A DNA stretch of 64,000 nucleotides from Bdellovibrionota bacterium (GTDB lineage: Bacteria; Bdellovibrionota_C; UBA2361; JBGSMV01): positions 34,738-98,737 of the forward strand of contig JBGSMV010000080.1 in the NCBI GenBank assembly GCA_041739995.1, read 5' to 3'. The notes below the pieces were generated by a model. It was not told where the DNA came from. It did no database searches and was given only the letters and a program-made list of their open reading frames with translations. Each line of letters opens with the position of its first letter. Within the stretch, counting starts at the first letter, position 1. The translations under genes and the position numbers were made by a program. Shown piece by piece: positions 1-19,072 of the stretch.

Positions 1-505
1 GAGTGTCGATATTAAGACAGTGATTGATCAGTACGGAAGTCTCTCACATCTCGACTTAGGCGACATCCTGCGTGGAGACGTCGAACGCAATCGTGACGCC
101 TATGACGTTACTAGGCTGATTCGATTGCCGCAGCTCATCACTTCCGAGTCCCACGTATACGACTTTCACCTGAGTCGGACCGAGCCGAATTTTATTACTC
201 AACGTCGCGTCAGCGAACTCGTGGTACTAGAGGACGAGATTCTTAATCAGGATCTCTCAAGGCGAATCGTGTTTATTCGCAGCGCTGACCCTGGATATGA
301 TTGGCTGTTCTCTCGCAACATCGGAGGATTAGTCACCATGTACGGTGGCGCAAATTCCCATATGGCGATACGTTGCGCTGAGTTAAGTATTCCGGCTGTT
401 ATCGGGTGCGGTGAGAAGAACTTTGAGTCATGGAGCCGCTCACGTATGCTCGAGATTGACTGCACGAATCGATTAGTCAAAGTGCCTAGCGATCTTCCAT
501 CGTAG
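1..505 (+). CDS. C-terminal part (5'-truncated by the window edge) of a PEP-utilising-enzyme family protein that ends in the phosphohistidine swivel (mobile) domain. Having the His domain at the C-terminus matches rifampicin-phosphotransferase / glutamine-kinase-like members rather than PpsA
   Basis: The frame is open back to position 2 with no upstream stop. The motif GGANSHMAIRCAELSIPAVIGCGE matches the PEP-utilisers mobile-domain consensus (GGxTSHAAIxARELGIPAVVG) including the catalytic His. The stop at 503-505 abuts the next start (ATG 507). Confidence 0.6.
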   Translation, partial: SVDIKTVIDQYGSLSHLDLGDILRGDVERNRDAYDVTRLIRLPQLITSESHVYDFHLSRTEPNFITQRRVSELVVLEDEILNQDLSRRIVFIRSADPGYDWLFSRNIGGLVTMYGGANSHMAIRCAELSIPAVIGCGEKNFESWSRSRMLEIDCTNRLVKVPSDLPS

Positions 506-506
506 T

Positions 507-1082
507 GTGATGATTCCGTATCGTCCGAATTACCTTGCTGATTCCTGTGTTCCAGTAGTCTGGATTACTGGCCTTGCGGGTGCGGGCAAGACGACCCTTG
601 CAGACCGCGTATGGGCCGAATTGCGTCCCACACTTCCAAATATTGTGAGACTCGATGGTGATGCGGTCAGAGAGATCTGGGGGGGAGAACTTGGATACAC
701 TCTCGAAGATCGCATTACGAATGCGGAGCGCCTAAGCCGCTTGGCTCTGTGCCTCCATCGGCAGGGGCTTGTAGTAGTCTGCTCGACCATGTCGCTCTAC
801 CCGCAAATTTGGGACTGGAATCGTGAGCATTTTAATTCGTATATTGAAGTGTACCTGCGCGTTAACATGGAGGTGCTTCAAGCTCGCAACAAGAAGGGGC
901 TTTACTCAACCTCAAATGCTGATGACGGACAAACAGTGGTAGGACGTGGCCAGGAATTTCATGAGCCCACCGCAGCGCACCTCACACTAGTAAACGAGAC
1001 AGTGGAAAACCTGGAATCTAATGTTATTCAAATCGTTCAGGCGATTAGGCAGAGCATGAACCTCAGGGGTCAGATATTATGA
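507..1082 (+). CDS. Adenylylsulfate-kinase-like P-loop kinase (CysC family). It may be a true APS kinase making PAPS, or a CysC-homologous nucleotide 3'-kinase such as a cytidine diphosphoramidate kinase
   Basis: Walker A GLAGAGKTTLA; LDGDAVR; DRxxNxxRL; C-terminal ARNKKGLY that resembles the CysC RDxKGLY motif. It is divergent from canonical CysC around the FTGIxSPYE region. It overlaps both neighbours, which suggests an operon. Confidence 0.65.
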   Translation: MMIPYRPNYLADSCVPVVWITGLAGAGKTTLADRVWAELRPTLPNIVRLDGDAVREIWGGELGYTLEDRITNAERLSRLALCLHRQGLVVVCSTMSLYPQIWDWNREHFNSYIEVYLRVNMEVLQARNKKGLYSTSNADDGQTVVGRGQEFHEPTAAHLTLVNETVENLESNVIQIVQAIRQSMNLRGQIL

Positions 1083-1846
1083 AACAGGGCGATTTTACAG
1101 ACTTGGCGAAGAACTACATCAATCGCCCTGGGTACTCGGCAAATGTATTGCGTGCTCTCGCAGAATACACTGGTGCGCGGAAATCTTCTCAGTTTCTCGT
1201 TGCTGACGTTGGTGCGGGAACCGGAAAGCTAACTGAGAACCTTGTCGAGCAGGAGCTCAAGGTCGTCGCTATCGAACCGAACGACGCAATGCGCGAAGAG
1301 GGCATGCGCTATACGGCTCCGCACCAAATTCCCTGGTCTAAGGGGAGTGGAGAGTCCACCGGTCTAGCTGCCACCTCGGTAAATTGGGTGTTGATGGGGT
1401 CGTCCTTTCACTGGGTCGACTTAAAGCTTGGCCTCGCTGAGTTTCACCGGGTACTAAAGAAAGGGGGTCATTTCACCGCACTTTGGAATCCGCGAGATTT
1501 GGAGCGTAGCGATCTACACCGTCGCATCGAAGAGCGTATTCATTCAATTGCCCCAAATATTTCCCGGGCCTCCTCCGGAGCCGGCAAATACACCGCCACC
1601 CTATTCGACGATCTCGTATCGACTGGACACTTTAAAGAGCCACTTTTTGTCGAGGCACGTCATGAAGTCGTGATGACGCCCGAGCGTTATCTCGGCGCAT
1701 GGCGTTCGGTCAATGATATTCAGTCACAGGCAGGGCCAGAGAAGTTCGCCGAAATTCTCATAGCGGTTGAGAAGGAAATCGCAAGTCTCAGCGAGATCGT
1801 CGTTCCGTATAAAACAAGATCATGGACGGTCCAGCGCGTCGATTGA
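1079..1846 (+). CDS. Class I SAM-dependent methyltransferase
   Basis: SAM-binding motif I VADVGAGTGKLTE, acidic motif II VVAIEPND and a Methyltransf_11-like length of 255 aa. ATGA overlap with the upstream gene. Confidence 0.7.
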   Translation: MKQGDFTDLAKNYINRPGYSANVLRALAEYTGARKSSQFLVADVGAGTGKLTENLVEQELKVVAIEPNDAMREEGMRYTAPHQIPWSKGSGESTGLAATSVNWVLMGSSFHWVDLKLGLAEFHRVLKKGGHFTALWNPRDLERSDLHRRIEERIHSIAPNISRASSGAGKYTATLFDDLVSTGHFKEPLFVEARHEVVMTPERYLGAWRSVNDIQSQAGPEKFAEILIAVEKEIASLSEIVVPYKTRSWTVQRVD

Positions 1847-1863
1847 TCGGGAGTTAGAAGTCA

Positions 1864-2592
1864 ATGAAAGGGATTGTTCTTGCCGCCGGTGAAGGCTCCC
1901 GACTCCGTCCACTCACCGACGATCGGCCCAAATGCATGGTGGAATATCGCGGGAAGCCGATATTGGACTACACCATCGAAGCCTTTCAACAGGGCGGATT
2001 AGCTGAAATTATCGTTGTCGGCGGCTATAAAGCCGAAGCGATTCAACGTTCCAGTGTTCGGAGTTATCTAAATCCACGATACGCAAGCACCAATATGGTG
2101 CACACGCTCTTCTGCGCCGAGGAGGAACTCACAGACGATATTATAGTGTCTTATGGCGACATCATTTATCATCCCGACATATTGAAAACGCTTATTGCTG
2201 ACCCCGGCATTATAGTTGTCGTGGTTGATAATCGCTGGGAGGAGCTGTGGCGACGTCGTATGGCTGATCCGCTCAGCGATGCAGAAACCATGAAGATCGA
2301 TCCTTCGGGGAATATCGTTGAGCTTGGGAAGAAACCGAATTCGTATGCGGATATACAGGGGCAGTACATAGGTCTATTCAAACTCGCGCGAAGCATCCTT
2401 CCGCAAATTCGAGATTTTTATCACTCGCTTGATCGCACGGCTCAATATGATGGAAAGAGCTTTGATCAGATGTATATGACCAGCTTCCTTCAGTTAATTG
2501 CCGATCAACTTCATCCAATTCGCGCGCTTCCTATTGAGGGAGGCTGGCTTGAGATCGATTCCGAGACCGATCTGGAGTGCCAGGCGGTTTAA
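1864..2592 (+). CDS. Sugar/phospho-substrate nucleotidyltransferase (LicC-like / CTP:phospho-X cytidylyltransferase family)
   Basis: N-terminal GIVLAAGEGSRLRPLTDDRPKCMV is the nucleotidyltransferase signature (G-x-G-x-R-L). It is 242 aa, the size of LicC-like cytidylyltransferases. Confidence 0.65.
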   Translation: MKGIVLAAGEGSRLRPLTDDRPKCMVEYRGKPILDYTIEAFQQGGLAEIIVVGGYKAEAIQRSSVRSYLNPRYASTNMVHTLFCAEEELTDDIIVSYGDIIYHPDILKTLIADPGIIVVVVDNRWEELWRRRMADPLSDAETMKIDPSGNIVELGKKPNSYADIQGQYIGLFKLARSILPQIRDFYHSLDRTAQYDGKSFDQMYMTSFLQLIADQLHPIRALPIEGGWLEIDSETDLECQAV

Positions 2593-2613
2593 GGTGACCC
2601 ACGCTTTGTAGCG

Positions 2614-4287
2614 CTATAGTGCTTTTAACACCGCGTCAATCCCTAGCCTATCGTAGTAACCCGCGATCCGTTCTGAGCCCTGCCTACTTTTTGAACCTTG
2701 AACGACTGCGTGAAAATCACTGACTGCTTCATGACCTTCTGCAGAATCTGGCGCAACGCGTAATAGCAATCCGCCTGCGGCATAACGAGCAATGCGGCTT
2801 CTCGATTGCGCCACACGACGAAGTCGATCAATCGCATATGCTTCATGGGTACGGTGCAGAAGGAGCTGCAACGCAAGATGACACTCAAGAATCGGGAGTT
2901 CGTCAACAAGCATGCAGTATTTCTGGAGCACCTTCTCAAATTCGCCAAATTGAAATTGCGGTTGCTGAAAATTACGGCGAATAGAAGAAAGCATGCTCTC
3001 GATCCAGAGATCGCGCGCCACGGTGAAAACGCTCAGATCCCACGTGAATGCGGGTATGACAGGTGCTATCGAAAGATCGTATCGAGCTTGGTGTTCTGTT
3101 CTCACCACACTTGCCACCAATGCGTAGCGGTTCAGCACACTTTGAGAATTGGCACTTCTCCACCGCTCTGCTCTTCCAGAGGTTGCTGCAGAATTTGGGT
3201 AGGCAGTCGCCTTTGCGCGTTCCGAGTTGCTCACCGCGGATTGAATAGCTTCGTCGCCTCGTTCGATCTCAAGAAACGACACTAAGCCACGCACCGCCCG
3301 TAGCGCACGATCGGGGTCCGTAAGATCCTCAAAGTAGAGGTGCATCAGATTGTCAGTGGGAACGCAGACTTCGAGAAATGTCTCTACCAAGAGCCACTCT
3401 TCAATCGTCGCCTGTCCAAAGATTCCTTCGCCGCCGTTCGTGGGAAGGTCAAGAACGTCATCCACACAAATCTCAGTCGTGTTTGATTGCAGGTTATTCT
3501 GTTTCGAAATACACACGTCACGTGGATCGCGAACGATTCGAACATGCTTCTTTCCGCTAAAGATCGCGGGCGAGAGGCTATGGGAAAACTGTGCCCCTAC
3601 ATCAACTTCGAAGGAGAAGTCCCGCCGACCACCCTGACGGACGACTATCGGCAAACAACTCGTCAGCCATTCGTGATGCTGCTCAAGCAGCCGAAAACTT
3701 CCTGCATGGAAGCGGAACATATCGTGAAAGCGTCCAAAATAGGTACATATTCCCAATTCTAGGAGCAAGTTCCATGTCTTATAAGTGCCACTGCACTCCA
3801 TGGACGAGAATTGAACCTCGCGAAGAAACGCACCATCGGCTACTCCCTCTGAGACTAAACAGATGCCATAAAGCGCCGACGAATTGAGGATAACTTTTGC
3901 CGGATGAAAGTCAGGGCGCAGTTCTATGAGTTTCTGGAGCAGAAGAGGTCCAAGATTGGGTTCGCCCGCGGAGCAAGCAGCCTGCGCCGCGTACCACAGA
4001 ATGCGCATCCCGGGGAAACCCATCTCGAGCGCCTTTATGAGATGCCCAAGTGCGACGGAAAATTCTCTCGCGCGGTAGGCGAGAACTCCAAGCCAGAATG
4101 GTCCGAATGGATCAGCGGGGTGTTGAACCGAGAAGAGTTGTGCCGCCGATCGGATCTCGGCAAGGTCTGCGTTTTCCCCTAGCTGACTATCTTCAACCGC
4201 AAAGATGCGTGAGCTTTCAACATTTCGGCTATGACGAAAGTGCTCAAGGTATTGTCCAAAGATGTCCAAACCAGACTGGTCTGTCAC
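2614..4287 (-). CDS. Sulfotransferase-domain protein with an N-terminal helical-repeat region
   Basis: VRIVRDPRDVCIS resembles the 3'-phosphate-binding RDPRD motif of sulfotransferases. LYFEDLTDPDRALRAVRGLVSFLEI matches the typical C-terminal Y-E-D-L-x-x-P...FLG sulfotransferase segment. 557 aa. Confidence 0.5.
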   Translation of the reverse strand: MTDQSGLDIFGQYLEHFRHSRNVESSRIFAVEDSQLGENADLAEIRSAAQLFSVQHPADPFGPFWLGVLAYRAREFSVALGHLIKALEMGFPGMRILWYAAQAACSAGEPNLGPLLLQKLIELRPDFHPAKVILNSSALYGICLVSEGVADGAFLREVQFSSMECSGTYKTWNLLLELGICTYFGRFHDMFRFHAGSFRLLEQHHEWLTSCLPIVVRQGGRRDFSFEVDVGAQFSHSLSPAIFSGKKHVRIVRDPRDVCISKQNNLQSNTTEICVDDVLDLPTNGGEGIFGQATIEEWLLVETFLEVCVPTDNLMHLYFEDLTDPDRALRAVRGLVSFLEIERGDEAIQSAVSNSERAKATAYPNSAATSGRAERWRSANSQSVLNRYALVASVVRTEHQARYDLSIAPVIPAFTWDLSVFTVARDLWIESMLSSIRRNFQQPQFQFGEFEKVLQKYCMLVDELPILECHLALQLLLHRTHEAYAIDRLRRVAQSRSRIARYAAGGLLLRVAPDSAEGHEAVSDFHAVVQGSKSRQGSERIAGYYDRLGIDAVLKAL

Positions 4288-4422
4288 GGTATCCGCCTAT
4301 AGCGAAGTGTAATCACGCAGCAATGCTGAACCCTTCCAATCTATAATGAAGCTTGCAGAATCGCGCCAGCAAAAGTGATATAGCATCGAGACAGAGGACG
4401 AACTCTCAGACCGTCGCTAGAG

Positions 4423-5124
4423 TTAAGATGAAATACTCAATATCTTGATGATTTTAATGTTCCACAGCAACTGTAGACCATTCGTATTCATACGAACGCC
4501 GTCCACTGCAGCAGTCCAAGAGCGCAGCTTGTTCTCCTTGGCCGGAATATCAAATGGCATCACCTGTTCGTCTACGTCGCAGCGCCACCCCAGCTCAGCA
4601 AGCCTCGCACAGAAGAGACCGAGAGGATACTGGTTGAACCCCGTGTGCCACTCACTGCTCCCCACACGCCGGTATTTGAGGGCGACCTCGAAATCGAAGT
4701 CATTAAAAACTCCAGTGATTACTGCGAGACCGCCCGGTCGCACATGGCGCAGGATATTCAAGGCAACGGGGATGGGGTCAGTCCAATACGAGAGAAGCGA
4801 TGTCGCGGTGACAAGATCAAATTTCTCGGAAAGACTGAAGCTTTCGGCATCGCCTACTTGAAACTCGATTTTCTGCGCTTCAAACCGTTTTTTTGCGCTC
4901 GCGATTAGCTCCTCCCCAATATCAACTCCTACTTTTCTCCCCGTAGGGAATACACTCTGGGAGAGGTGTGCGAGCAGTTCCCCGCTCGCACATCCAACAT
5001 CGAGACAGGATACCCCTTTGGCCACGTCGAAATGCGCGGTGGCAATCGAACTAATCCGTTTGAAGAGATCTTTAACTTCGAAGTGCGCGTCGTCTTGAAC
5101 ATGAAAATTGGAGGGGTTTGTCAT
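4423..5124 (-). CDS. Class I SAM-dependent methyltransferase
   Basis: Motif I CLDVGCASGELLAHL. The start was moved to internal Met (MTNPSNF) because the longer N-terminal extension in the ORF track is low-complexity. Confidence 0.6.
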   Translation of the reverse strand: MTNPSNFHVQDDAHFEVKDLFKRISSIATAHFDVAKGVSCLDVGCASGELLAHLSQSVFPTGRKVGVDIGEELIASAKKRFEAQKIEFQVGDAESFSLSEKFDLVTATSLLSYWTDPIPVALNILRHVRPGGLAVITGVFNDFDFEVALKYRRVGSSEWHTGFNQYPLGLFCARLAELGWRCDVDEQVMPFDIPAKENKLRSWTAAVDGVRMNTNGLQLLWNIKIIKILSISS

Positions 5125-5325
5125 AGCGGTCCATGAACTAGTTGCTGATCCAGTCAAAGAGAGAAGACTTGGGCTGTGGGGAGCTAACCGGTTTGTACAC
5201 AACCCATGGTGCAGCTACCCAAAAATACTCATAATTTCGCGAATCCTTGGTCATTTTCGCAGACTCGAAACATAGAGAGTAGTGGTACGTTTAGTGAATA
5301 GTATCAATTAGGTACATGGATTCCG

Positions 5326-7533
5326 ATGTCTCAGACTAGAGTACTGTTCTACGTTCCCTATGGGGGCTGGACTGTCCACAACCAGGTGGAAGCCGCTATC
5401 GCTTCCGCGCTCAGGGTTCGGGGCGCCGAAGTTATGGTGGTTGGGTGCGACGGCCTATTCTCGGAACGTTGTTATATTCTTAGTGGTTCTAAAACACCCG
5501 AAGCCGACTGCGCCCATTGCACAAAAACTGGGGTAGATTTTTTTGGAGCATTTCAATTACCGCTAGTGCAACTACGCTCGGCCCTCCAAAAGGGCGACTA
5601 CGATGGGATCGATAGCTGGCTGAACGATCAGGATCCTGCGCACTTCCCCGAGCTCACTTTTGAGGAGATTCCTGTTGGTAAACTGACTTCACCAGCAGTA
5701 TGTGGGTTTCATACGATAGGTCCCACCCTGCTCCGAGAAGCCGACCCGCAGTACACGCATCGGCTTTATCTGAAATATTGGCTGCTCACCTATGCCGGAC
5801 TCAATCGAATATTCGAACAATTCAAACCAACTCACACGGTCATTTTCCACGGAGCTGGTTTCTCGCATTCAGCAGCACTTTCACTTTCGAAAAAACGTGG
5901 GGTACCGATAGTCACGCATGAGAAGGGCTGGGTACCTCGTTCCTTCCTGATGGCGATCGATGAAACCGTGATAGGACCTTATTCGCGCGCAAAGTCTTCA
6001 CGAGCCTGGCTTCCGTACCCCTTATCTGCAGAGGAGGTGAAAAAGGCAGGGGAACTCTTTACCGACTGGGAGGAAGGCAAGAATAGGGTCACCGGACGAT
6101 TCTTTTCCTATTCAACCGATCCTACTCGCCTGCGGGAGCATCTTGGAATCCCCTCCGATGCCAGAATTTTCTCCGTCTTTACCACCAGCGAGCATGAGAT
6201 CCTTTATCTGGATGAATGGGGAATCTTACATGAACAAGTTCTGATGATTGAGCGTCTCGCCGAGATATTTCGTTCGAGAAAAGAATACTTAGTTATCCGT
6301 CACCACCCAAACGTCTGTAACCCTCTTCATCCAGGTCCCGACTCAGATTACCTCGAGAGGCTGCTCGCACTTTCGCAGCGACTTCCCTCAAATGTGCGAA
6401 TGATCATGCCGTATGAGTCGGTAAATTCTTACAGCCTCCTCTGGCATAGCGACGCCACTTTCTCGACAATCTCCACCATTGGTCTTGAAGCCGTCGCTCG
6501 CGGCATTCCGAGCGCTTCGCTTTCATGTTCAAGTTTCAGCGCTTCGATGCAAATGACTCTCGAATCGCTCGAACCTTCCGACCTCGAAAGAATGGTCAAC
6601 GATCTCCTATCGACACCTCTGAGCGCCTCTCTCGAGCAAATAGCGAAGGCCTATCGCGTCCTTTTCACGCAGATGTTTAGGTTTCCCCTTACCTTTAAAA
6701 CCATTGGTGTCGACGAGAACCGGAGGCCTGAGATTAAGATTGAATCTGTAGAGCAACTTCTACCTGGTGCAGATCCGGTGATGGATCGAGTATGCGACTA
6801 TTTCCTGAGGGGAACTTCTCTGCATGAGATTCCAGGTGACAACGCGCAAAATCGTAACGAGCATGATGAACGAAACGCTCTCGCCGAGGAGCGCGAGCGC
6901 TTCGTGCAGGCACGCGCGTTAGCTCGCGGGTCAGCACAAACTCAGGCGCCGCTCCCACTTTCAATGGCCGTGGTACTCGCTCGATACACCGATGGAGAGG
7001 CTCAGCAGCCGTGGTGGCTGGGCCGCCAAAGGACTAAACAATACCGCTTCTATCCCGCACAAGTACCCTCTCACGCTGACTGGCGAGAGCAGCTGATCTC
7101 GTTACAAAGAGTTATTATGGAACGCGAGGAAGCGCTTGTACTACCGGCACACCCGTCTTGCGAGTATGATGAATGCTTGATGCAATCGTCAAGCGAAGCC
7201 ATAAGCTGCTCCGAGCGTCACATTGACGCGGTGCTTTGGGGAGCATGGCTGTATGATAAGAATTCAAAGTTGATTAGCGGGGCCTATACTCCCTACCACA
7301 AAGTGAGTTCGTGGGAGGAACTCCTTAAGCATATGCCACAACTTGGAACGGTTACTGGGCAGCTAGGCCTGGGAGTATTCAGACGTGATTTTTTAGTGAG
7401 ACTCCTCTCTGAGATGGGCGCTGCGAAGAACGAGCAGGTTGCTGCCTTTGAACTATTTAGACTGCTCTCGGGAGATGCTGTACTTCGGCTCGAACAACCA
7501 ATGGTGTTTTATAAACAGGATCTCCAGGGATGA
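5326..7533 (+). CDS. Large 735-aa hypothetical protein. A central region resembles the C-terminal GT-B-like half of capsule-polysaccharide (KpsC/KpsS, beta-Kdo transferase) family proteins, making it a candidate CMP-ulosonic-acid transferase
   Basis: Long ORF in the operon with ATGA overlap to the downstream SDR. Segments HHPNV...PYESVNSYSLLWHSDATFSTISTIGLEAVARGIP resemble the Capsule_synth/TagF-like donor-binding half. The N-terminus VLFYVPYGGW...GAEV is Rossmann-like. The family assignment is from memory only. Confidence 0.4.
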   Translation: MSQTRVLFYVPYGGWTVHNQVEAAIASALRVRGAEVMVVGCDGLFSERCYILSGSKTPEADCAHCTKTGVDFFGAFQLPLVQLRSALQKGDYDGIDSWLNDQDPAHFPELTFEEIPVGKLTSPAVCGFHTIGPTLLREADPQYTHRLYLKYWLLTYAGLNRIFEQFKPTHTVIFHGAGFSHSAALSLSKKRGVPIVTHEKGWVPRSFLMAIDETVIGPYSRAKSSRAWLPYPLSAEEVKKAGELFTDWEEGKNRVTGRFFSYSTDPTRLREHLGIPSDARIFSVFTTSEHEILYLDEWGILHEQVLMIERLAEIFRSRKEYLVIRHHPNVCNPLHPGPDSDYLERLLALSQRLPSNVRMIMPYESVNSYSLLWHSDATFSTISTIGLEAVARGIPSASLSCSSFSASMQMTLESLEPSDLERMVNDLLSTPLSASLEQIAKAYRVLFTQMFRFPLTFKTIGVDENRRPEIKIESVEQLLPGADPVMDRVCDYFLRGTSLHEIPGDNAQNRNEHDERNALAEERERFVQARALARGSAQTQAPLPLSMAVVLARYTDGEAQQPWWLGRQRTKQYRFYPAQVPSHADWREQLISLQRVIMEREEALVLPAHPSCEYDECLMQSSSEAISCSERHIDAVLWGAWLYDKNSKLISGAYTPYHKVSSWEELLKHMPQLGTVTGQLGLGVFRRDFLVRLLSEMGAAKNEQVAAFELFRLLSGDAVLRLEQPMVFYKQDLQG

Positions 7534-8357
7534 AAACCGGTAGCGCCACCGCAATGTTTGATCTGACCGGAAAGGTGATCGTGGTCACCGGTGCTGCAGG
7601 TATCCTCGGCGGTCATTTTAGTCGTGCACTTGCGGGCAGTGGCGGCACCCTCGCACTTCTTGATCAACAACGACTCGAAGTCGAGGAACTCGCAAAATCG
7701 ATTGCCCTTGAGTTCGGTGTTGATGCGATTGGACTCCATTGTGACGTGACTGATCCGAAGTCTGTCATACAAGCCGTAGATCAGGTCGAAGACCGATTTG
7801 GTCACATCGATGTCTTACATAACAATGCCGCAACAAAGGGGAAGGATCCCCGTGCCTTCTTTGATCCTTTTGAGGACTTCTCTCTCCGTACTTGGCGCGA
7901 GATTATGTCGGTCAACATCGATGGGATGTTTTTAATGGCTCAGGCCGTCGGTCGAAAAATGAAAGCGAGAGGCAACGGTGGAAGTATAATTCAAACCGCG
8001 TCAATATATGGAGTCGTTGCGCCAGACCAGAGAATCTACGAAGGCTCGAACTACCTCGGAGGCACCATTAATACTCCTGCGGTATATTCAACATCAAAGG
8101 CAGCGGTCATTGGCCTTTCGCAACATCTTTCAACCTACTGGGGCCCACTTGGAATTCGAGTGAACACTCTCACCCCTGGCGGCGTGCAAAGCGGCCAAAA
8201 TGGTGAATTTGTGCGCAAGTATAGCGAACGAGTCCCGCTCGGACGCATGGCAACACCCGATGACCTTAGTGGCGCACTGGTATACCTCGCATCCGACGCT
8301 TCTCGCTATGTAACGGGGCAGAATTTGGTGGTCGATGGAGGCTTCACCGTTTGGTGA
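7530..8357 (+). CDS. Short-chain dehydrogenase/reductase (SDR) family oxidoreductase
   Basis: Cofactor-binding VIVVTGAAGILG; catalytic YSTSKAAVIGL (YxxxK); 275 aa. Confidence 0.8.
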   Translation: MKTGSATAMFDLTGKVIVVTGAAGILGGHFSRALAGSGGTLALLDQQRLEVEELAKSIALEFGVDAIGLHCDVTDPKSVIQAVDQVEDRFGHIDVLHNNAATKGKDPRAFFDPFEDFSLRTWREIMSVNIDGMFLMAQAVGRKMKARGNGGSIIQTASIYGVVAPDQRIYEGSNYLGGTINTPAVYSTSKAAVIGLSQHLSTYWGPLGIRVNTLTPGGVQSGQNGEFVRKYSERVPLGRMATPDDLSGALVYLASDASRYVTGQNLVVDGGFTVW

Positions 8358-8372
8358 CCAGCAGGAGTTAGT

Positions 8373-9296
8373 ATGGGGTGCTGCACCCGCGTAATCGCCC
8401 GCTTGGACATTAAAGGTCCAAATGTAATTAAGGGACTCCAGTTCGAGGGGCACCGCGTTTTGGGCACTGCGGATGCATTAGCAACTGCATACTACCGAGC
8501 CGGGATCGACGAGATAATTTATCAGGACACTGTCGCCAGCCTCTATCAACGCTCCAACATTGCGGAACTCATCAAGCGCGCTGCTACCGGTATCTTTGTC
8601 CCCATAGCGGTTGGAGGCGGGCTACGAAGCATAGAAGATATGCGAAACGTACTTCGCGCCGGGGCGGATAAAGTTATCTTGAATACCGGTGCAGTAAAAT
8701 CTCCGTCGCTAATAGACGCAGGTGCCCGCGAGTTCGGATCTCAGTGCATTGTTTGCTCAATCGAAACCGCTCGAATCAATGGTGAATATAAGGTTTGGGT
8801 TGACTATGGACGTGAGGTCTCCTCTCTAGACCCCGTCAGCTGGGCTCAAGAAGTAGTGAATCGTGGCGCTGGCGAGATTATCATCAACTCACTTATGCAT
8901 GACGGCATGGGTGAAGGGTTCGATTTGGATATAATCAGCCAAATTGCAGAAAAAGTCTCGGTGCCGGTGGTAGCCTCGGGTGGTGCTGGCAAGAGGGAGC
9001 ACTGTCTCGACGTGCTGCGCTCAACCTCCGCGAATGCCGTAGTAGTAGGCTCGATGTTTCACTACCACTATCTGCAAAACTCCACTCAGGCATTACCACA
9101 GCAACCTTCTCACCTACTCGGCGGAGAAATCGATCAGGGAAACTTCGATTTTATAAAAGATGGTTATGGAGGTGATCGCGCCATTATGGTGCAGCCAACC
9201 TCGGTGCAAGAGGTCAAAACGTTCTTGAGTGAAAATGGGATTGTCGTTCGCACCGCAATTTCGTCACCTCTGCCTGACCATAGGGTGTCAGAATGA
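8373..9296 (+). CDS. Imidazole-glycerol-phosphate-synthase cyclase-like (HisF-like, WbuZ/PseudoHisF-type) subunit of a sugar amidotransferase
   Basis: HisF-like (beta/alpha)8 motifs RVIARLDIKG, VPIAVGGGLRS, VVASGGAG. It is followed by a HisH-like and a WbpG-like gene, the arrangement seen in O-antigen/nonulosonate acetamidino loci. Confidence 0.75.
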   Translation: MGCCTRVIARLDIKGPNVIKGLQFEGHRVLGTADALATAYYRAGIDEIIYQDTVASLYQRSNIAELIKRAATGIFVPIAVGGGLRSIEDMRNVLRAGADKVILNTGAVKSPSLIDAGAREFGSQCIVCSIETARINGEYKVWVDYGREVSSLDPVSWAQEVVNRGAGEIIINSLMHDGMGEGFDLDIISQIAEKVSVPVVASGGAGKREHCLDVLRSTSANAVVVGSMFHYHYLQNSTQALPQQPSHLLGGEIDQGNFDFIKDGYGGDRAIMVQPTSVQEVKTFLSENGIVVRTAISSPLPDHRVSE

Positions 9297-9970
9297 AAAC
9301 TCAATCAATTGTAGTGATTGACTATGGTGTAGGAAACCTCTTCAACGTTGAGTCCGCTTGCAAAGCGCTCGATCTTGATTTTCTCACCACCACCGATCCT
9401 CAGGTAGTTAGTAATGCTGCTCGCATCCTATTGCCTGGAGTCGGCGCTTTTAGACCAGCGATGCAACGCCTCCATGACGGTGGACTGATAGAACCACTGC
9501 GTAACTTCGTTACATCTGGACGGCCACTTCTCGGTATATGCCTTGGCATGCAGTTACTTTTCTCTACCTCTGAGGAGCACGGCTCCTGGAACGGCCTTAA
9601 TTTTATTCCTGGAAAGGTCGTACGTCTCCACGAGGGTGCAGCCGCTTCCAATTCACAGGTCAAAATCCCCCATATTGGGTGGAATATGGTCAACCGTAGC
9701 CCCGATCACCCCTCTCAATCAGTTCTCGATGGTCTACCTGCTCCAATATCGGTGTACTTTAACCACTCTTTCATGGCGGTACCGGTCGACCCAAATGTCG
9801 TGCTCGGACATTGTTCGTATGGCGAGAACTCTGTCGCATCTGTGATTCGACATAACAACATTCATGGATGCCAGTTTCATCCAGAACGAAGCGCGGATGC
9901 GGGACTACGAATTTTGTATAATTTTGCTCACCTAGATGGTCTAGGATCAACCCACACGGGAGGATATTAA
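9293..9970 (+). CDS. Class I glutamine amidotransferase (HisH-like, WbuY-type)
   Basis: IVVIDYGVGNLFNVESA N-terminus, catalytic GICLGMQLL (Cys) and HIGWN / FHPE His-Glu motifs. ATGA overlap with the hisF-like gene. Confidence 0.8.
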   Translation: MKTQSIVVIDYGVGNLFNVESACKALDLDFLTTTDPQVVSNAARILLPGVGAFRPAMQRLHDGGLIEPLRNFVTSGRPLLGICLGMQLLFSTSEEHGSWNGLNFIPGKVVRLHEGAAASNSQVKIPHIGWNMVNRSPDHPSQSVLDGLPAPISVYFNHSFMAVPVDPNVVLGHCSYGENSVASVIRHNNIHGCQFHPERSADAGLRILYNFAHLDGLGSTHTGGY

Positions 9971-9971
9971 G

Positions 9972-11171
9972 ATGAGCAACCATCACCACTCCCAGCTCGA
10001 CCGCCAGTTTGATTCTCTTCCGAAGGAAGTAGCCTTCTGCAAAAACTGTGTGGTTTCCAATCAGCGTCCTCGCACAAGATTCAACGCAGAAGGGGTCTGC
10101 TCGGCCTGCCAGTGGGCTCACGAGAAGGACCATCTCGTTGACTGGATAGAAAGGGAGCGTGAGCTGAAGGATTTATGCGACCGCTTTCGAAGTCCCACTG
10201 GTGGCTTTGATGTGGTGGTTCCCGGTAGCGGCGGAAAGGACAGCGCATACGTTGCGCACCAACTAAAGCATCGATACGGCATGCACCCTCTGTGCGTAAC
10301 CTGGGCACCCTTCGAGTGGACCCCAATCGGCTTTGCTAACCTGCAAGCATTTAATCGCGCCGGATTTACAAATTTGATTACACAACCCGACGGGAAATTG
10401 CATCGAGCTCTCTCTCGTCTCGCATTCGAGCTCAAAGGCGATGCATGGGAACCATTTGCCTACGGCCAGAAATCGCTTGCGTTTCACCTTGCCTGTCGCT
10501 TCGGTATTAAACTTATTTTTTATGGCGAGAATGGAGAGCTAGAGTACGGGGGTTCGGAACGGCACAAGAATCTCCCCAAGGAAGGGCCTGAGGAGTGGAA
10601 AGACGCATATTTCAAAGGAGCGTCCCTCGATGAGGTTATTGAAACTGGGTTGTCTCGGGGAGTGATAGAGAAATTCGATCTCTGCAACGCTTCGCTTGAA
10701 CTTTACAAAGCGCCACCTCTACAGGAAATCCAAGAGCATGGCGCTGAAATGCACTGGTTTTCTTATTATCGAAAGTGGACCCCTCAGGAGAATTTCTACT
10801 ATGCCGCACGCCATACTGGATTCTTAACCAACCCCGAGGGCCGCTCAGAAGGTACTTATACCAGGTACGCGAGCTTGGATGATAAGGCAGATGGATTCCA
10901 TTGGTACCTGAGCTACATGAAGTTTGGCATGGGTCGAGCCTCACGTGATGCGCAAGGCGACATTCGCAGACATCACCTCACAAGAGAAGAGGGCGTTGCG
11001 CTCGTACGAAGATATGACGGAGAGTTCCCTGCTCGATATTTTGATTGGTTTTTGAAGTATCTCGAAATTACCCGAGAGCGTTTTTGGGAGGTAATGGACA
11101 TGTACAGGTCTCTGTCTAACGTGTGGCGCAAAGACGGGAAGGAGTGGGTCATGACTCATCCAGTGAAATAA
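9972..11171 (+). CDS. N-acetyl-sugar amidotransferase (WbpG/LfnA family, PP-loop ATP pyrophosphatase)
   Basis: N-terminal Cys cluster CKNCVVSNQRP...CSAC and PP-loop VVPGSGGKDSAY, which are characteristic of WbpG-family amidotransferases that partner HisH/HisF homologues. Confidence 0.75.
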   Translation: MSNHHHSQLDRQFDSLPKEVAFCKNCVVSNQRPRTRFNAEGVCSACQWAHEKDHLVDWIERERELKDLCDRFRSPTGGFDVVVPGSGGKDSAYVAHQLKHRYGMHPLCVTWAPFEWTPIGFANLQAFNRAGFTNLITQPDGKLHRALSRLAFELKGDAWEPFAYGQKSLAFHLACRFGIKLIFYGENGELEYGGSERHKNLPKEGPEEWKDAYFKGASLDEVIETGLSRGVIEKFDLCNASLELYKAPPLQEIQEHGAEMHWFSYYRKWTPQENFYYAARHTGFLTNPEGRSEGTYTRYASLDDKADGFHWYLSYMKFGMGRASRDAQGDIRRHHLTREEGVALVRRYDGEFPARYFDWFLKYLEITRERFWEVMDMYRSLSNVWRKDGKEWVMTHPVK

Positions 11172-12325
11172 TGACTATTCGAGTATGTGTGGTAACGGGA
11201 ACAAGGGCAGATTACGGACATCTTGCAAGTCTGCTAAAGTTGCTACGCGACGATCAAGAGATCGAACTCCAACTGATTGTTGCAGCGATGCACCTCTCGG
11301 CAGAGCATGGCAATACCATTATCGAGATTCAGCAGGACGGTTTTGAGATTGCCGCTAAAGTTGAATCTGTAGTCGAGGGGAATGATGGCTCAGCCGTTGC
11401 ACGATCTACCGCGCTCGCCCTAGTCGGCTTCTCGAATGCTTTTGCCAATCTTAGACCAGACGTGGTTCTCCTTCTCGGGGATCGCTATGAGATGGGGGCA
11501 GCAGCTCAGGCCGCACTTTTCTCGAAACACCCTATCGTGCACATCAATGGTGGCGATAACACCGCCGGAAGCTACGACGATGCGATTCGCCATTTCATCA
11601 CCAAATGCGCTCAGCTTCACTTCGTAACCAGCACAACCGCTGCACGACGAGTTGCTCAGCTTGGGGAAGCTCCCGACAGCATATTCAACGTCGGAAGCCT
11701 CTCGCTCGACAACATTAAACAAACCGCCCTTCTCTCACGAGAAGAGCTAGAGAGCTCCCTGGACTTTCGCTTTAAGCAGAGAAACATTTTAGTCACTTAC
11801 CACCCAGCCACTGCAGACGAAGTAGACGCTACAGAAGAACTTAACGAACTATTGGCCGCACTTGATTGTTTCGGCTCAGAAGTCGGCATAATTTTTACAA
11901 AACCTAACCACGACACAGGCGGAGCTGCAATTATTGAAGTCTTGAAGCACTATGTTTCATCTCGACCACATACCGCGTTAAGAGCAAGCCTCGGTCGGCA
12001 ACGCTACTATAGCGCGGTGAACATAGTGGACGTGGTCTTGGGAAACTCTTCGAGTGGGATTCATGAAGCTCCCGTACTCAAAACACCCACCGTTAACGTG
12101 GGAAATCGCCAACGCGGACGCTTCATGCCTAGCTCGGTACTCTCAGTCGACGGGAAGAGAGATCAGATTCACCAAGCACTCCTTAAAGCTTTTGCTACCG
12201 CGGTTACTGACACCTCCACTGAATACGGGGACGGAACTGCAGGTCCGAAGATATTGGCGACTCTTAAAGAGCAATGGAAACTGGGAAAAATGAGGAGTGT
12301 CTTAAAAGACTTTCATGACTTGTAG
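11171..12325 (+). CDS. neuC: UDP/GDP-N-acetylglucosamine-type 2-epimerase, hydrolysing (NeuC/LegG family)
   Basis: MTIRVCVVTGTRADYGHL..., GDRYEMGAAAQAA, HINGGD and the C-terminal LGNSSSGIHEAP motifs are typical of NeuC-type epimerases. ATG at 11171 overlaps the upstream stop (TAATG). Confidence 0.8.
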   Translation: MTIRVCVVTGTRADYGHLASLLKLLRDDQEIELQLIVAAMHLSAEHGNTIIEIQQDGFEIAAKVESVVEGNDGSAVARSTALALVGFSNAFANLRPDVVLLLGDRYEMGAAAQAALFSKHPIVHINGGDNTAGSYDDAIRHFITKCAQLHFVTSTTAARRVAQLGEAPDSIFNVGSLSLDNIKQTALLSREELESSLDFRFKQRNILVTYHPATADEVDATEELNELLAALDCFGSEVGIIFTKPNHDTGGAAIIEVLKHYVSSRPHTALRASLGRQRYYSAVNIVDVVLGNSSSGIHEAPVLKTPTVNVGNRQRGRFMPSSVLSVDGKRDQIHQALLKAFATAVTDTSTEYGDGTAGPKILATLKEQWKLGKMRSVLKDFHDL

Positions 12326-13025
12326 CACAGAGAAATCTGCCCTTTTAGTGGGGAAAGCCGGTCACCCCTTTCTTCCACAAGCGATAGCTCTTGCCAAAGA
12401 AGTCTTTGCATCCGTCGAAGTTGTGGAAGGAAAACGAGGTGACCCGCTACCTCAACAGTTTGCTACCTGGAGAGGCGACTATCTCATCTCTTATCTTTCT
12501 CAATGGGTGATTCCTGCCGAGACACTCCAACACGCTCGCGTAGAGGCGATCAATTTTCATCCTGGGCCACCAGCATATCCTGGCATCGGGTGCACCAACT
12601 TCGCGCTCTACAATCAAGAGCTGTCCTTTGGAGCAACGTGCCATCGAATGGTAGCTAAAGTTGATACAGGTGATATTCTTTTTGTTGCGCGATGCCCAGT
12701 GCTGGTCTCCGACAGTGTTCTTAGTCTAACCGAGCGCTGTTATGCCCTCATCTGGGAGCTCTACGCTGAGACTTTGGGGAAAATTCGTGATGGCGTTCCA
12801 TTCATACCTTGTGGTGAGACGTGGAGCAGACAGCCCTACACACGAAAGGAACTAGATGCCCTTTGCCAAATCACCCCAGACATGTCCGTTAACGAAGTAG
12901 CTCGGAGAGTGAGAGCTACAAACTACCCAAACATGCCAGGCCCCTTCGTCGAGATCGGGGGATTTAAATTCAACCTCGACCTGCACGCGATGTCTTTGCC
13001 TAAAGGTTCTTCCTGTAAGAAGTAA
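12315..13025 (+). CDS. Sugar N-formyltransferase (formyl_trans_N domain protein)
   Basis: INFHPGPPAYPGIGCTNFALYN and HRMVAKVDTGDIL match the formyltransferase catalytic core (His/Asp), and a similar fold is used by sugar N-formyltransferases. 236 aa. Confidence 0.65.
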   Translation: MTCSTEKSALLVGKAGHPFLPQAIALAKEVFASVEVVEGKRGDPLPQQFATWRGDYLISYLSQWVIPAETLQHARVEAINFHPGPPAYPGIGCTNFALYNQELSFGATCHRMVAKVDTGDILFVARCPVLVSDSVLSLTERCYALIWELYAETLGKIRDGVPFIPCGETWSRQPYTRKELDALCQITPDMSVNEVARRVRATNYPNMPGPFVEIGGFKFNLDLHAMSLPKGSSCKK

Positions 13026-13224
13026 TGCTGTCTTTGTCGCCGCACAAAACGCCCGCACTGCGCTGGCGCAAGACCAGCGTGATACTTGGCTCCGCTACGG
13101 CATCCGACAAGGCTTGCTCCCACACTCAAAATATCTTTATATTTCAGCTCGTTACAGAGCGGCGCTGACCCAAATGGAGGGGAAAGGCCTGAATCCCTAG
13201 GGACCGCCAGCTCATCAAAATTTA

Positions 13225-13602
13225 TTGGAACAGTTCCAAGCGCAGTGTCTTATGTCTAATGCACCCGATCATTCATTCGAGCTACTTGGCCACCGATTCT
13301 TTTTCGGAGAGCCCCCGCCAACGCACGCCCAAGCTATTCAAGAGTGGCAAAAGCAGTACAGCGGCATGGCAGAGGCGGAAGCTGCAATAGCTCAGTACAA
13401 CTCTGGGAACCTGGAAGAAGCACTGCATCAGTTAACTCGCCTTGTAGTCTTTCAGCCAGATTTTTTTTCCCTCTATATTCTTAAGGCAGTGGTAGAGGTG
13501 AATTTGGGGAAAATAGAGGATGCTCGCAAATCGCTAAATTGGGTGCTGGTTAAAGACCCCACCTCTACTCAAGCCCGTCAGTTATTGGAGCAACTGGGAT
13601 AA
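13225..13602 (+). CDS. Small TPR-like helical-repeat protein
   Basis: 125 aa with TPR-like helix pairs (LEEALHQLTRLVVFQPDFFSLYILKAVVEVNLGKIEDARKSL). Confidence 0.45.
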   Translation: MEQFQAQCLMSNAPDHSFELLGHRFFFGEPPPTHAQAIQEWQKQYSGMAEAEAAIAQYNSGNLEEALHQLTRLVVFQPDFFSLYILKAVVEVNLGKIEDARKSLNWVLVKDPTSTQARQLLEQLG

Positions 13603-13631
13603 ACAGAAAACAGATCAGGGATTGATCCAAA

Positions 13632-14600: not shown

Positions 14601-15358
14601 CATACGACCCGGAAACGGTTCGGCAGGAATACTGTTGCGGAGTGCTTCTTCCGACCGACGAGTATACTACGTCGATCACCAATTTCCCTGGGGGAAATTG
14701 CTTTCCCTACTGGGACACAAAAGGCGATTTCTTTTTGTCCTGCTCTATTTTTTCTGACGGCAAGCGTCATGCAGTCGTACATTCAAAGCACTGCAACGAG
14801 AAGGGTTATCTAGAGGTCCACATCGACCATGCCACACAGTTCTCCGAAAAGCCGTTGAGTGGATTGGTGCTTATTGAACTTACTCTCCCGAAGAAGGTTC
14901 CCGTCGACCTCTACACCGCGCATGTACATAAAAAAACGGGCATCTACGTTTCGTACCCTTCTGGTCATTTCGTCGGAGATACGCTCTACACTGCCACACG
15001 CGCCCGCGAGCTATTCAATACCGGCTTTTGGCCTGGATTAGTGAGCAGCGATACCGCTGAGACTTCTGTTATCTTAATGAACCCCTACAAAATTCCGTTC
15101 TCGTATCAACTGTCGCTCTTTCTCCCTGATGGTCGAAAACTTCAAACGGACGTAATGAAAGTACTCCCCTTTCGCTTCCAGATACATGCGATTGAAGAAA
15201 CATTCCCTGAAGTCAAAAACTTGAGTGTAGAAGATAGGGAATGCTGCTCTATATGCATTTCTTCACAGTATAATCTTGTCGGATACGTCATGATTAAAGA
15301 CAGAGGCACCGGCGCATTCACGTCGATTGACCACCTCCACCCTTATGTTTTGATCTAG
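14579..15358 (+). CDS. Hypothetical protein (259 aa)
   Basis: Long ORF in the same operon orientation that overlaps the upstream gene end. No family recognised. Confidence 0.4.
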   Translation: MDVQPPLAYDPETVRQEYCCGVLLPTDEYTTSITNFPGGNCFPYWDTKGDFFLSCSIFSDGKRHAVVHSKHCNEKGYLEVHIDHATQFSEKPLSGLVLIELTLPKKVPVDLYTAHVHKKTGIYVSYPSGHFVGDTLYTATRARELFNTGFWPGLVSSDTAETSVILMNPYKIPFSYQLSLFLPDGRKLQTDVMKVLPFRFQIHAIEETFPEVKNLSVEDRECCSICISSQYNLVGYVMIKDRGTGAFTSIDHLHPYVLI

Positions 15359-15360
15359 CC

Positions 15361-19023: not shown

Positions 19024-19072
19024 AGCAATTTCCTAGGGGTCCTCGATAGGGTCAAAAGGTTTAGATGACTCA

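Follow-up and report, generated by a model that had tools for sequence, protein, structure and literature searches.

A four-gene locus outside Campylobacter resembling the Campylobacter jejuni pathway to an activated phosphoramidate donor

Introduction

In Campylobacter jejuni, the enzymes Cj1415-1418 convert glutamine, ATP and CTP into CDP-phosphoramidate 3'-phosphate (PMC11800397), and the literature treats O-methyl phosphoramidate (MeOPN) as confined to Campylobacter (PMC6429109, PMC9561416). The textbook gene order, Cj1420-Cj1419-Cj1418-Cj1417-Cj1416-Cj1415-KpsC, is that of C. jejuni GP013 (locus L060), whose proteins served as the C. jejuni references for all identities given here. A MeOPN-like cluster has also been proposed in the Cobalt Borg, where, according to the accessible text of the preprint, equivalents of Cj1418, Cj1417 and Cj1416 were recognised by structural similarity and are accompanied by phosphonate genes (bioRxiv 10.1101/2024.11.05.622173). 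The other system to be compared is sulfation through PAPS, with its CysC kinase, sulfotransferases and CysQ phosphatase.

Here, we analyzed a 64-kb stretch of DNA (the window) whose host is not Campylobacter and whose nearest named relatives are Bdellovibrionota MAGs. Like the C. jejuni MeOPN cluster (Cj1415-Cj1422), the window contains co-directional, coupled homologues of Cj1418, Cj1415, Cj1420 and Cj1416. The order of the genes is different, however, being 1418-1415-1420-1416 in the window and 1420-1419-1418-1417-1416-1415 in C. jejuni, and the window has one methyltransferase where C. jejuni has two. Furthermore, the window has neither a Cj1417 hydrolase nor a Cj1421/22 (NF058596, DUF2972) transferase, and in place of the kps capsule genes of C. 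jejuni its neighbours are legionaminic-acid-type and sulfation genes.

Results

Four coupled genes with the enzyme set of the MeOPN pathway

The first 2592 nucleotides of the window are occupied by four tightly packed genes on the same strand (Table 1). The kinase gene is translationally coupled to both the glutamine-kinase gene before it and the methyltransferase gene after it, and when positions 1-5400 were scanned for promoters and terminators, the counts were not above those in shuffled sequence.

Table 1. Positions of the four-gene locus and of other window features discussed in the text
Feature	Position	Strand	Remarks
C-terminal 167 aa of a PEP-utiliser-type enzyme (Cj1418 family)	2..505	+	Open at the 5' window edge; TAG stop 503-505
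APS-kinase-like, Cj1415-type nucleotide 3'-kinase	507..1082	+	Start GTG 507 or ATG 510; database gene model P0001 begins at 510
Class I SAM methyltransferase, Cj1420 type	1079..1846	+	ATGA overlap with the kinase gene
COG1213/LicC-like cytidylyltransferase, Cj1416 type	1864..2592	+	17-nt spacer after the methyltransferase gene
557-aa protein, TPR-like N-terminus and sulfotransferase-fold core	2614..4287	-	Convergent on the quartet
735-aa protein	5326-7533		
HisH-like amidotransferase	9293-9970		Member of a WbuX/Y/Z-type trio
Sulfotransferase-like protein	21363-22343		Operon 21363-24695, ~20 kb from the quartet
ATP sulfurylase	22353-24695		Operon 21363-24695

All four domains of the quartet are generic at the Pfam level, as would be expected if unrelated housekeeping or phosphocholine-type genes, namely a PEP synthase or PPDK, CysC, a generic methyltransferase and LicC, had become adjacent by accident. 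However, the best NCBIfam models were common to the window proteins and the C. jejuni proteins, and both these family-specific models and the identities to the MeOPN enzymes were far stronger than the match to any housekeeping family. Since the pairwise E values against C. jejuni ranged from 1e-39 to 8e-88, chance resemblance is excluded, and these four families are found together in dozens of phyla. An accidental assembly of housekeeping genes is thus effectively refuted. An earlier note, which had matched the quartet to the Cj1418/Cj1415/Cj1419-20/Cj1416 enzyme set from the DNA letters, is borne out by the pairwise comparison, the common NCBIfam families and the phylogeny.

The truncated first gene encodes PF00391 (PEP-utilizers, 1.4e-13), with the phosphohistidine swivel domain at its end. 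While C. jejuni Cj1418 scored 1173 bits on NF004508/PRK05849, the fragment covered positions 628-786 of this 789-position model with a score of 199 bits, and it was 41% identical to residues 622-776 of Cj1418. His120 of the fragment, within GGANSHMAIR, lines up with the catalytic His737 of Cj1418, so that the catalytic His is kept as in C. jejuni. PpsA, PPDK and rifampin phosphotransferase were rejected as identities for this gene, because none of their models gave the fragment more than 29 bits; with the His domain also C-terminal, this check did not refute the match to the MeOPN set made in the earlier note. Based on the 167 residues visible, the fragment is probably the end of an L-glutamine-kinase-type enzyme, with glutamine as the likely substrate.

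The second gene encodes a PF01583 APS_kinase domain (2.6e-28) and shares 36% identity with Cj1415 (E 1e-39). The protein scored 103 bits on TIGR00455 apsK, which is under the cut-off of 138.7, and 162 bits on NF004041, which is over the cut-off of 127 and on which Cj1415 scored 291 bits. In a neighbour-joining tree, it was placed inside a clade of 51 glutamine-kinase-linked kinases, and 59 of 60 bootstraps set this clade apart from the five authentic APS kinases in the tree. The residues F101 and F185 of APS kinase form an adenine-stacking pair (PMC4373884); they are replaced by Tyr and Val in the window kinase, the same replacement as in Cj1415. On these three counts an authentic APS kinase (CysC, TIGR00455) was rejected, so that the remark in the earlier note that the protein is a divergent CysC held, and its check against bona fide CysC did not refute its reading. 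The tabulated APS-kinase positions D87, D89, R92, R106, N109 and K171 (human PAPSS1 numbering) are retained. Taken together, the kinase is most likely a cytidine diphosphoramidate kinase distinct from CysC.

The third gene product belongs to Methyltransf_11/25 in Pfam and aligned with Cj1420 over its full length at 44% identity (5e-77), compared with 32% identity to Cj1419; it is the single Cj1419/Cj1420-family member at the quartet. It would be the O-methyltransferase of the phosphoramidate. The fourth gene product, assigned to NTP_transf_3/NTP_transferase in Pfam, was 47% identical to Cj1416 over its full length (E 8e-88), and its best solved relative was LicC (PDB 1jyk, 6e-17). It clusters with the Cj1416 homologues that are present in 71 of 80 glutamine-kinase loci, and is therefore a putative CTP:phosphoglutamine cytidylyltransferase, the substrate being predicted from its relatives.

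Related loci in other lineages

The glutamine-kinase family is not Campylobacter-specific, as it is encoded in at least 594 species representatives, and genes for the donor pathway as such occur in many bacterial phyla as well as in at least one archaeal MAG. Isolates that are candidates for a cultivable carrier of the module are Azospirillum isscasi C340-1 (L049) and Salipiger sp. IMCC34102 (L073). Across the 80 related loci compared, which come from many phyla, the hydrolase was found with the glutamine kinase in 71, the cytidylyltransferase in 71, the kinase in 50 and the methyltransferase in 41. Outside Campylobacter, usually one type of methyltransferase is found (Cj1420 type only in 17 loci, Cj1419 type only in 16, both in 5). 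Sulfotransferase-like genes occur in 23 of the 80 loci and CysQ-like phosphatases in 14, while ATP sulfurylase was found in none of the 80, a combination that shows a PAPS-like logic in the wider module.

The closest homologues, at 56-73% identity, are in a Logan contig from SRR21358772 (L084) and a Bdellovibrionales MAG (L003), and the core order of glutamine kinase, kinase and methyltransferase is common to these two and the window. Identities to the homologues in L084 were 67% for the glutamine-kinase fragment, 73% for the methyltransferase and 60% for the cytidylyltransferase, and the methyltransferase of L003 was 63% identical. The full order in L084, the closest operon, is glutamine kinase, CysQ-like phosphatase, kinase, methyltransferase, hydrolase and cytidylyltransferase; relative to the window, L084 thus has two extra genes, one for a CysQ-like phosphatase that follows the glutamine kinase and one for a Cj1417-type hydrolase that precedes the cytidylyltransferase. 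A histidine kinase gene converges on the L084 cluster; it was considered as a homologue of the convergent gene of the window and rejected as unrelated.

Hydrolase and transferase of the C. jejuni type

No tblastn match to a Cj1417-type hydrolase (NF045546) was obtained at E 1e-3 within the 64 kb, and the gap between the methyltransferase and cytidylyltransferase genes, which holds the hydrolase in L084, is 17 nt in the window. The hydrolase family HMM reached just 19 bits within the 64 kb, on the HisH-like gene. This gene encodes the sole class-I amidotransferase of the window, which is of the HisH/WbuY type and is paired with a HisF-like gene; it was rejected as a replacement for Cj1417 based on this score and its membership in the trio.

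If the pathway in this organism were a hydrolase-less variant, the intermediate would stay CDP-L-glutamine, and N-phosphoglutamine or another derivative would be transferred instead of simple phosphoramidate. The missing gene in the window and at the L084-like position is consistent with such a variant, as are six further loci with full 10-kb flanks that also have no hydrolase (L001, L018, L019, L047, L073 and L079). However, the hydrolase adjoins the glutamine kinase in the large majority of the related loci (71 of 80), the window leaves out ~43 kb of the 106,844-base contig, with all of its upstream part, in addition to other parts of the genome, and we found no precedent for the variant in the literature. 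We consider this variant quite improbable, and the hydrolase is more likely to be encoded elsewhere in the genome, outside the window.

A transferase of the Cj1421/22 type (NF058596, DUF2972) likewise gave no tblastn match in the 64-kb window. Two large neighbouring proteins had no NCBIfam match, and the 735-aa protein was rejected as a Cj1421-type transferase because it had no similarity.

A convergent sulfotransferase-fold gene and a sulfation operon

The 557-aa protein encoded next to the quartet matched PF00685 at threshold (22 bits). A profile built from it and its relatives matched solved sulfotransferases, including SULT2A8 and Teg14, at 8e-12, and the protein has a conserved His236, in keeping with a catalytic His, and the sequence RDPRD..S (253-261), which is the 3'-phosphate-binding RDPxxxxxS motif. 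Sulfotransferases typically have K or R as a basic residue in their 5'-phosphosulfate-binding loop. In the 557-aa protein this basic residue was not found, the loop reading ECSGTYK versus TRSG in the nearest relatives. An HMM made from four sulfotransferase-like genes, each from a different lineage (judged by record title) and each situated directly upstream of the kinase and co-directional with it, matched the protein at 3e-17. One kinase-adjacent relative is the gene in L019.

The family of the 557-aa protein is rare, with 45 representatives among 1.84 billion, and a word-based homologue search returned only the protein itself. For the best of its distant relatives (L082 and L083), the contigs were too short or uninformative. 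A profile comparison between a Cj1421-like protein and the sulfotransferase-like family gave a weak match (E 0.0035, probability 9%), so that kinship between the two is suggestive only. Considering its fold and position, we infer that the 557-aa protein is the best candidate for the (methyl)phosphoramidate transferase; alternatively, it could be a sulfotransferase of the ordinary kind.

The ATP-sulfurylase and sulfotransferase operon further downstream does not include a gene for APS kinase. Because the quartet kinase is the sole APS-kinase-like ORF within the 64 kb, it might also, or instead, make PAPS. In that case the kinase would be dual-purpose or belong purely to the sulfate pathway, converting APS from the sulfurylase to PAPS for both the sulfotransferase-like protein of the operon and the 557-aa protein, and the locus would chiefly sulfate its glycan. 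The APS-kinase residues retained in the kinase and the sulfotransferase fold of the adjoining protein also fit this explanation. On the other hand, the gene is translationally coupled on one side to that for a glutamine kinase and on the other to that for a Cj1420-type methyltransferase, the protein belongs to the glutamine-kinase-linked clade, falls below the TIGR00455 cut-off and has lost both adenine-stacking Phe residues exactly like Cj1415. Moreover, ATP sulfurylase is not part of any of the 80 related loci, and a canonical cysC may sit elsewhere in the genome. Such a dual or purely sulfate-pathway role therefore appears unlikely.

Discussion

The homology of the four genes to characterised enzymes, the membership of the kinase in its clade and the conservation of the module across phyla are direct observations. 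From the sequence comparisons, we estimate a probability of about 0.75 that the four genes form an operon whose products make, by the C. jejuni route, the activated donor for decoration with (methyl)phosphoramidate. In this pathway, the glutamine kinase would phosphorylate L-glutamine at its amide nitrogen via a phospho-His on the C-terminal swivel domain, and the LicC-like enzyme would combine phosphoglutamine with CTP to give CDP-L-glutamine. A class-I amidotransferase-type hydrolase, which is not in the window, would then free glutamate and leave cytidine diphosphoramidate, and the APS-kinase-like enzyme would phosphorylate its 3'-OH, yielding 3'-phospho-CDP-amidate, an analogue of PAPS. 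The O-methyl group would come from the Cj1420-type methyltransferase, to which no stage is assigned here. Finally, a sulfotransferase-fold enzyme, probably the 557-aa protein, would attach this group to a surface glycan. A possible acceptor is the legionaminic-acid-type glycan whose genes are neighbours of the quartet; a nonulosonate as the target is a guess from the neighbourhood only.

The predicted route is similar to the PAPS sulfation system in the kinase fold and in the logic of 3'-phosphorylation, and the related loci also recruit sulfotransferase-fold proteins and CysQ-like phosphatases. In contrast with that system, the kinase forms a clade apart from CysC and its adenine-stacking Phe pair is lost, and the donor would have cytidine in place of adenine and a P-N group in place of sulfate. 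We tentatively propose that here and in about a quarter of the related loci, sulfotransferase-fold enzymes transfer (methyl)phosphoramidate from 3'-phospho-CDP-amidate as a mimic of PAPS, that CysQ-like phosphatases recycle the nucleotide by-product, and that one Cj1415-type kinase possibly feeds both phosphoramidation and sulfation of a legionaminic-acid-type glycan, although we hold this proposal to be more doubtful than probable. That genes for sulfotransferase-fold and CysQ-like proteins are repeatedly linked to the module makes it a testable idea of group transfer, and if transfer by sulfotransferase-fold enzymes is true, phosphoramidate decoration of glycans would be a widespread bacterial trait and not a Campylobacter curiosity.

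The window copy itself extends a known, under-described pathway at the level of annotation and brings no new mechanism. Since the donor pathway is encoded in many phyla, P-N-containing surface glycans are predicted well outside Campylobacter, which bears on phage recognition, immune evasion and mass-spectrometry searches of glycans.

Like the window, the Cobalt Borg cluster comprises glutamine-kinase-like and cytidylyltransferase-like genes outside Campylobacter, both putative, and in addition a hydrolase-like gene; unlike the window, it is described without mention of a kinase or methyltransferase in the accessible preprint text. The earlier note had called such modules essentially undescribed outside Campylobacter. 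This is correct for the literature on O-methyl phosphoramidate (PMC6429109, PMC9561416), but the rarity was overstated, considering the species representatives counted above, the Borg preprint and the gene names at JGI, which already include 'glutamine kinase' and 'cytidine diphosphoramidate kinase'.

Genes homologous to the MeOPN donor pathway

ORF analysis of window positions 1-2592 revealed four ORFs on the plus strand, whose tight packing indicates one operon. A promoter and terminator consensus scan of 1-5400 did not exceed shuffled sequence in number of matches, and the G+C content of the quartet (~51%) was similar to that of most of the window (0.49-0.56). Pfam assigned a PEP-utilizers mobile domain, APS_kinase, a class I methyltransferase and a MobA/LicC-like nucleotidyltransferase to genes 1-4, respectively, in agreement with the four domain types named in the earlier note. 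The closest solved relative of the gene 4 product is LicC (PDB 1jyk).

Features of the window (aa, amino acids; empty cells, not given)
Feature	Position	Strand	Remark
Gene 1, glutamine-kinase-type fragment	Base 2 frame, TAG stop 503-505	+	Open at window edge
Gene 2, APS-kinase-like kinase	507 (GTG) or 510 (ATG) to 1082	+	
Gene 3, methyltransferase	1079-1846	+	ATGA overlap with gene 2
Gene 4, LicC-like cytidylyltransferase	1864-2592	+	17 nt after gene 3
557-aa candidate transferase, sulfotransferase-like	2614-4287	-	
Methyltransferase	4423-5202		Operon with sulfotransferase-like gene 2614-4287
735-aa protein	5326-7533	+	
WbuX/WbuY/WbuZ-type trio	8373-11171		Amidotransferases
HisH-like gene	9293-9970		Part of the trio
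NeuC	11123-12325		
Formyltransferase	12315-13025		
PseF-like cytidylyltransferase	16052-16798		
CBS-nucleotidyltransferase	16958-18052		
LegC	19073-20242		
LegB	20332-21351		
Sulfotransferase	21363-22343	-	~20 kb from quartet
780-aa fusion	22353-24695	-	Pyruvate-kinase (PK) barrel, PUA_2, ATP sulfurylase
Na+/H+-exchanger-family ORFs	24717-26090	-	
NeuB	28195-29496		
302-aa aldehyde dehydrogenase ORF	37472-38380	-	
500-aa aldehyde dehydrogenase	38377-39879	-	Full length
Metallophosphoesterase-methyltransferase	44800-46263	+	

In C. jejuni, Cj1415-Cj1418 convert glutamine, ATP and CTP to CDP-phosphoramidate 3'-phosphate (PMC11800397). Metagenomic homologues of gene 1 were aligned, and the alignment served as a query against a set with a single genome for each GTDB species, where a C. 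jejuni locus (L060) was among the matches listed. Its ORF lengths and order correspond to Cj1420, Cj1419, Cj1418 (779 aa), Cj1417, Cj1416, Cj1415 and KpsC, and the NCBIfam labels are 'gamma-glutamyl-CDP-amidate hydrolase' for the Cj1417 ORF and 'O-methyl phosphoramidate transferase' for a partial ORF upstream. The gene 1 fragment aligned with residues 622-776 of Cj1418 at 41% identity (E 6e-46), the gene 2 kinase with Cj1415 at 36% (E 1e-39), gene 3 with Cj1420 over its full length at 44% (E 5e-77) and with Cj1419 at 32% (E 2e-44), and gene 4 with Cj1416, again over its full length, at 47% (E 8e-88). In the alignment, His120 of the gene 1 fragment (GGANSHMAIR) pairs with Cj1418 His737, which we take to be the phosphorylated histidine of Raushel's work.

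On the NCBIfam model NF004508 (PRK05849), the gene 1 fragment scored 199 bits over positions 628-786 of 789 (Cj1418, 1173 bits), but every model of PpsA, PPDK, PTS enzyme I or rifampin phosphotransferase gave 29 bits or less. As the His domain is also C-terminal, gene 1 is not an ordinary member of these families. Based on the identities, the family models and the kinase tree described below, the homology of the quartet to MeOPN enzymes is strong, and the earlier reading of the quartet as a MeOPN donor pathway is supported by the sequences: it appears to be a reduced format of that pathway in a non-Campylobacter genome, with its nearest named relatives in Bdellovibrionota. The hydrolase, transferase and chemistry of the window pathway are putative.

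The gene 2 kinase and authentic APS kinases

The window kinase passed the NCBIfam model NF004041 (162 bits, cut-off 127; Cj1415, 291 bits) and failed the canonical apsK model TIGR00455 (103 bits, cut-off 138.7). We constructed a neighbour-joining tree with 60 bootstraps from 51 kinases of glutamine-kinase-containing loci, E. coli CysC and four solved APS kinases (human PAPSS1, Synechocystis, Aeropyrum and 7yq0). The five canonical APS kinases split from all 51 linked kinases in 59 of the 60 bootstraps, and the window kinase grouped with two Bdellovibrionota sequences in 52. Considering this separation and the TIGR00455 score, we rejected an authentic APS kinase; the divergence from CysC that had been proposed, with a phylogeny as the check, was borne out by a position among glutamine-kinase-linked kinases.

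In APS kinases, two conserved phenylalanines, Phe492 and Phe576 in M. tuberculosis CysC, sandwich the adenine of APS (PMC4373884). The equivalent residues in human PAPSS1 are F101 and F185. Of the 51 linked-clade kinases, 47 carry Tyr or His at the first position and 42 carry Val, Leu or Ile at the second; the window kinase and Cj1415 share the pair Tyr and Val. The VVG flagged in the earlier note stands in place of the canonical FTG in the kinase alignment. Loss of the purine sandwich would be compatible with a pyrimidine nucleotide substrate.

The 780-aa fusion lacks the PK C-terminal domain and the sulfotransferase gene comes next; to our knowledge, no PK-sulfurylase fusion has been described. 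No APS kinase is present in this operon (21363-24695), the Cj1415-type gene 2 is the only APS-kinase homologue within the 64-kb window, and its product retains the tabulated APS-kinase residues Asp, Arg, Asn and Lys, all of which would suit a kinase that also serves PAPS synthesis. However, the kinase belongs to the linked clade, has lost the Phe pair and is encoded within the quartet operon, so we consider such a role a minority possibility, and a canonical cysC may sit elsewhere in the genome.

Location of the hydrolase gene

When the 64 kb was searched by tblastn with C. jejuni proteins, neither a Cj1417 homologue nor a Cj1421-like homologue was found. The HisH-like gene of the amidotransferase trio was rejected as a stand-in for Cj1417, with just 19 bits on a hydrolase HMM built from 72 sequences of 71 loci. 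The closest operon found, on a metagenomic contig (L084; Logan SRR21358772), shares 67% identity in the glutamine-kinase C-terminus, 56% in the kinase, 73% in the methyltransferase and 60% in the cytidylyltransferase. Its order is glutamine kinase, CysQ-like phosphatase, kinase, methyltransferase, hydrolase and cytidylyltransferase, whereas the phosphatase and hydrolase positions are 1-nt and 17-nt spacers in the window. Since a nearby hydrolase is likewise missing from six further loci with full flanks, a hydrolase gene at a distance from the quartet is plausible. In a Bdellovibrionales locus (L003), the glutamine kinase is preceded by a hydrolase-like gene and the cytidylyltransferase, both encoded on the other strand, so the hydrolase gene may also lie just upstream of the window.

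Distribution of the module

The GTDB scan revealed glutamine-kinase relatives in at least 594 species representatives, and the closest among the matches listed were Bdellovibrionota (57-61%). By record title, the best 80 of these at least 594 loci include Bdellovibrionota, Omnitrophota, Bacteroidota, Spirochaetes, Thermodesulfovibrionales, Geobacter, Campylobacterales, Gamma- and Alphaproteobacteria (with the isolates Azospirillum isscasi and Salipiger sp.), Sericytochromatia, Obscuribacterales, Lachnospiraceae, Myxococcales, Acidobacteria, Planctomycetes, Elusimicrobiota, Actinomycetota and a Methanoperedens MAG. When all ORFs of these best 80 loci were clustered, the glutamine kinase family was found in 74, the Cj1417-type hydrolase and the Cj1416-type cytidylyltransferase in 71 each, the kinase in 50 and the Cj1419/1420 methyltransferase in 41. 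Non-Campylobacter loci mostly had one methyltransferase type (Cj1420 alone, 17; Cj1419 alone, 16; both, 5). A kinase homologue with 57% identity lies beside NeuB, AsnB-like and GT90 genes on another contig (L085, 2420-2977), whose 6.2 kb contain no glutamine kinase.

The claim that such modules are essentially undescribed outside Campylobacter stood for the literature consulted: a 2019 review has MeOPN identified in Campylobacter only (PMC6429109), a 2022 review terms the kinase C. jejuni-specific (PMC9561416), and our full-text search found no paper on a broad distribution of the module. The implied rarity did not stand, given the at least 594 species, the JGI labels 'glutamine kinase' or 'cytidine diphosphoramidate kinase' on many metagenomic homologues, and a related cluster proposed in a Borg preprint (bioRxiv 10.1101/2024.11.05.622173). 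Neither the pathway nor its enzyme families are new: annotation resources already propagate them, and many genomes carry the module.

Linked sulfotransferase-fold and CysQ-like genes

The wider pattern, namely the broad distribution and the linkage to sulfotransferase-fold and CysQ-like genes, is a more interesting lead than the window itself. Among the best 80 loci, inositol-monophosphatase/CysQ-like phosphatases occur in 14 (L008, L010, L015, L017, L021, L025, L030, L033, L034, L050, L051, L061, L075 and L078) at a median of ~620 bp from the glutamine kinase, as well as in L084, and cytidylate kinase is linked in four; both are consistent with recycling of a cytidine 3',5'-bisphosphate by-product. 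ATP sulfurylase was found in none of the 80. Two sulfotransferase-like families are linked to the module, and their HMMs match 23 of the 80 loci, 20 of these with the kinase. In four loci (by record title, L006, Spirochaetes; L012, Thermodesulfovibrionales; L019, Bacteroidetes; L064, Planctomycetota), a ~380-aa sulfotransferase-like gene directly 5' of the kinase abuts or overlaps it on the same strand. The HMM of this family matches the 557-aa window protein (E 3e-17), whose gene is convergent with the quartet; 21 nt separate the two stop codons. The sulfotransferase-like family profile matched solved sulfotransferases (SULT2A8, Teg12, Teg14 and StaL; E down to 8e-12), and all sequences of the family alignment share the catalytic His and the 3'-phosphate motif RDPRD..S. 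The 557-aa protein has few close relatives (45 in 1.84 billion representatives), and the contigs of the closest added no gene context.

Considering that the donor is a PAPS analogue, we infer from the linkage that sulfotransferase-fold enzymes would pass phosphoramidate on from the PAPS-like donor, and CysQ-like enzymes would remove the 3',5'-bisphosphate by-product. In C. jejuni, MeOPN is gone when Cj1421 or Cj1422 is lost (PMC11800397). The Campylobacter MeOPN-transferase-family protein (Cj1421-like; NF058596, DUF2972 C-terminus) carries a sulfotransferase-like motif pair, ..HTGS.. and LLRDPIEILRS, in L060 (93-1235) and in another locus (L066, about 4900-6456), and profile support for its relation to the sulfotransferase-like family was weak. 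An in-frame stop disrupts the copy in L066.

Neighbouring genes

Since the surroundings of the quartet encode a legionaminic-acid-type nonulosonate pathway (7530-21351 and 28195-29496), the acceptor is likely a surface glycan. Acetamidino-type amidotransferases, further methyltransferases and an alginate-export-like porin are also encoded nearby. In other loci, nonulosonate genes are no regular companion of the module.

The gene for the 735-aa protein is divergent from the methyltransferase/sulfotransferase-like operon, and its product matched no Pfam or NCBIfam family, with only faint Glyco_transf_4 and Capsule_synth matches. The two Na+/H+-exchanger-family ORFs are halves of one domain (profile 4-149 and 156-369) split by a single in-frame TAG at 25451-25449, which could reflect a pseudogene, a sequencing error or read-through. 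For the 302-aa ORF, the match to the aldehyde dehydrogenase family covers just the family's N-terminal half; the ORF lies directly downstream of the 500-aa aldehyde dehydrogenase gene. At 44800-46263, a calcineurin-like metallophosphoesterase domain is fused to a class I methyltransferase domain.
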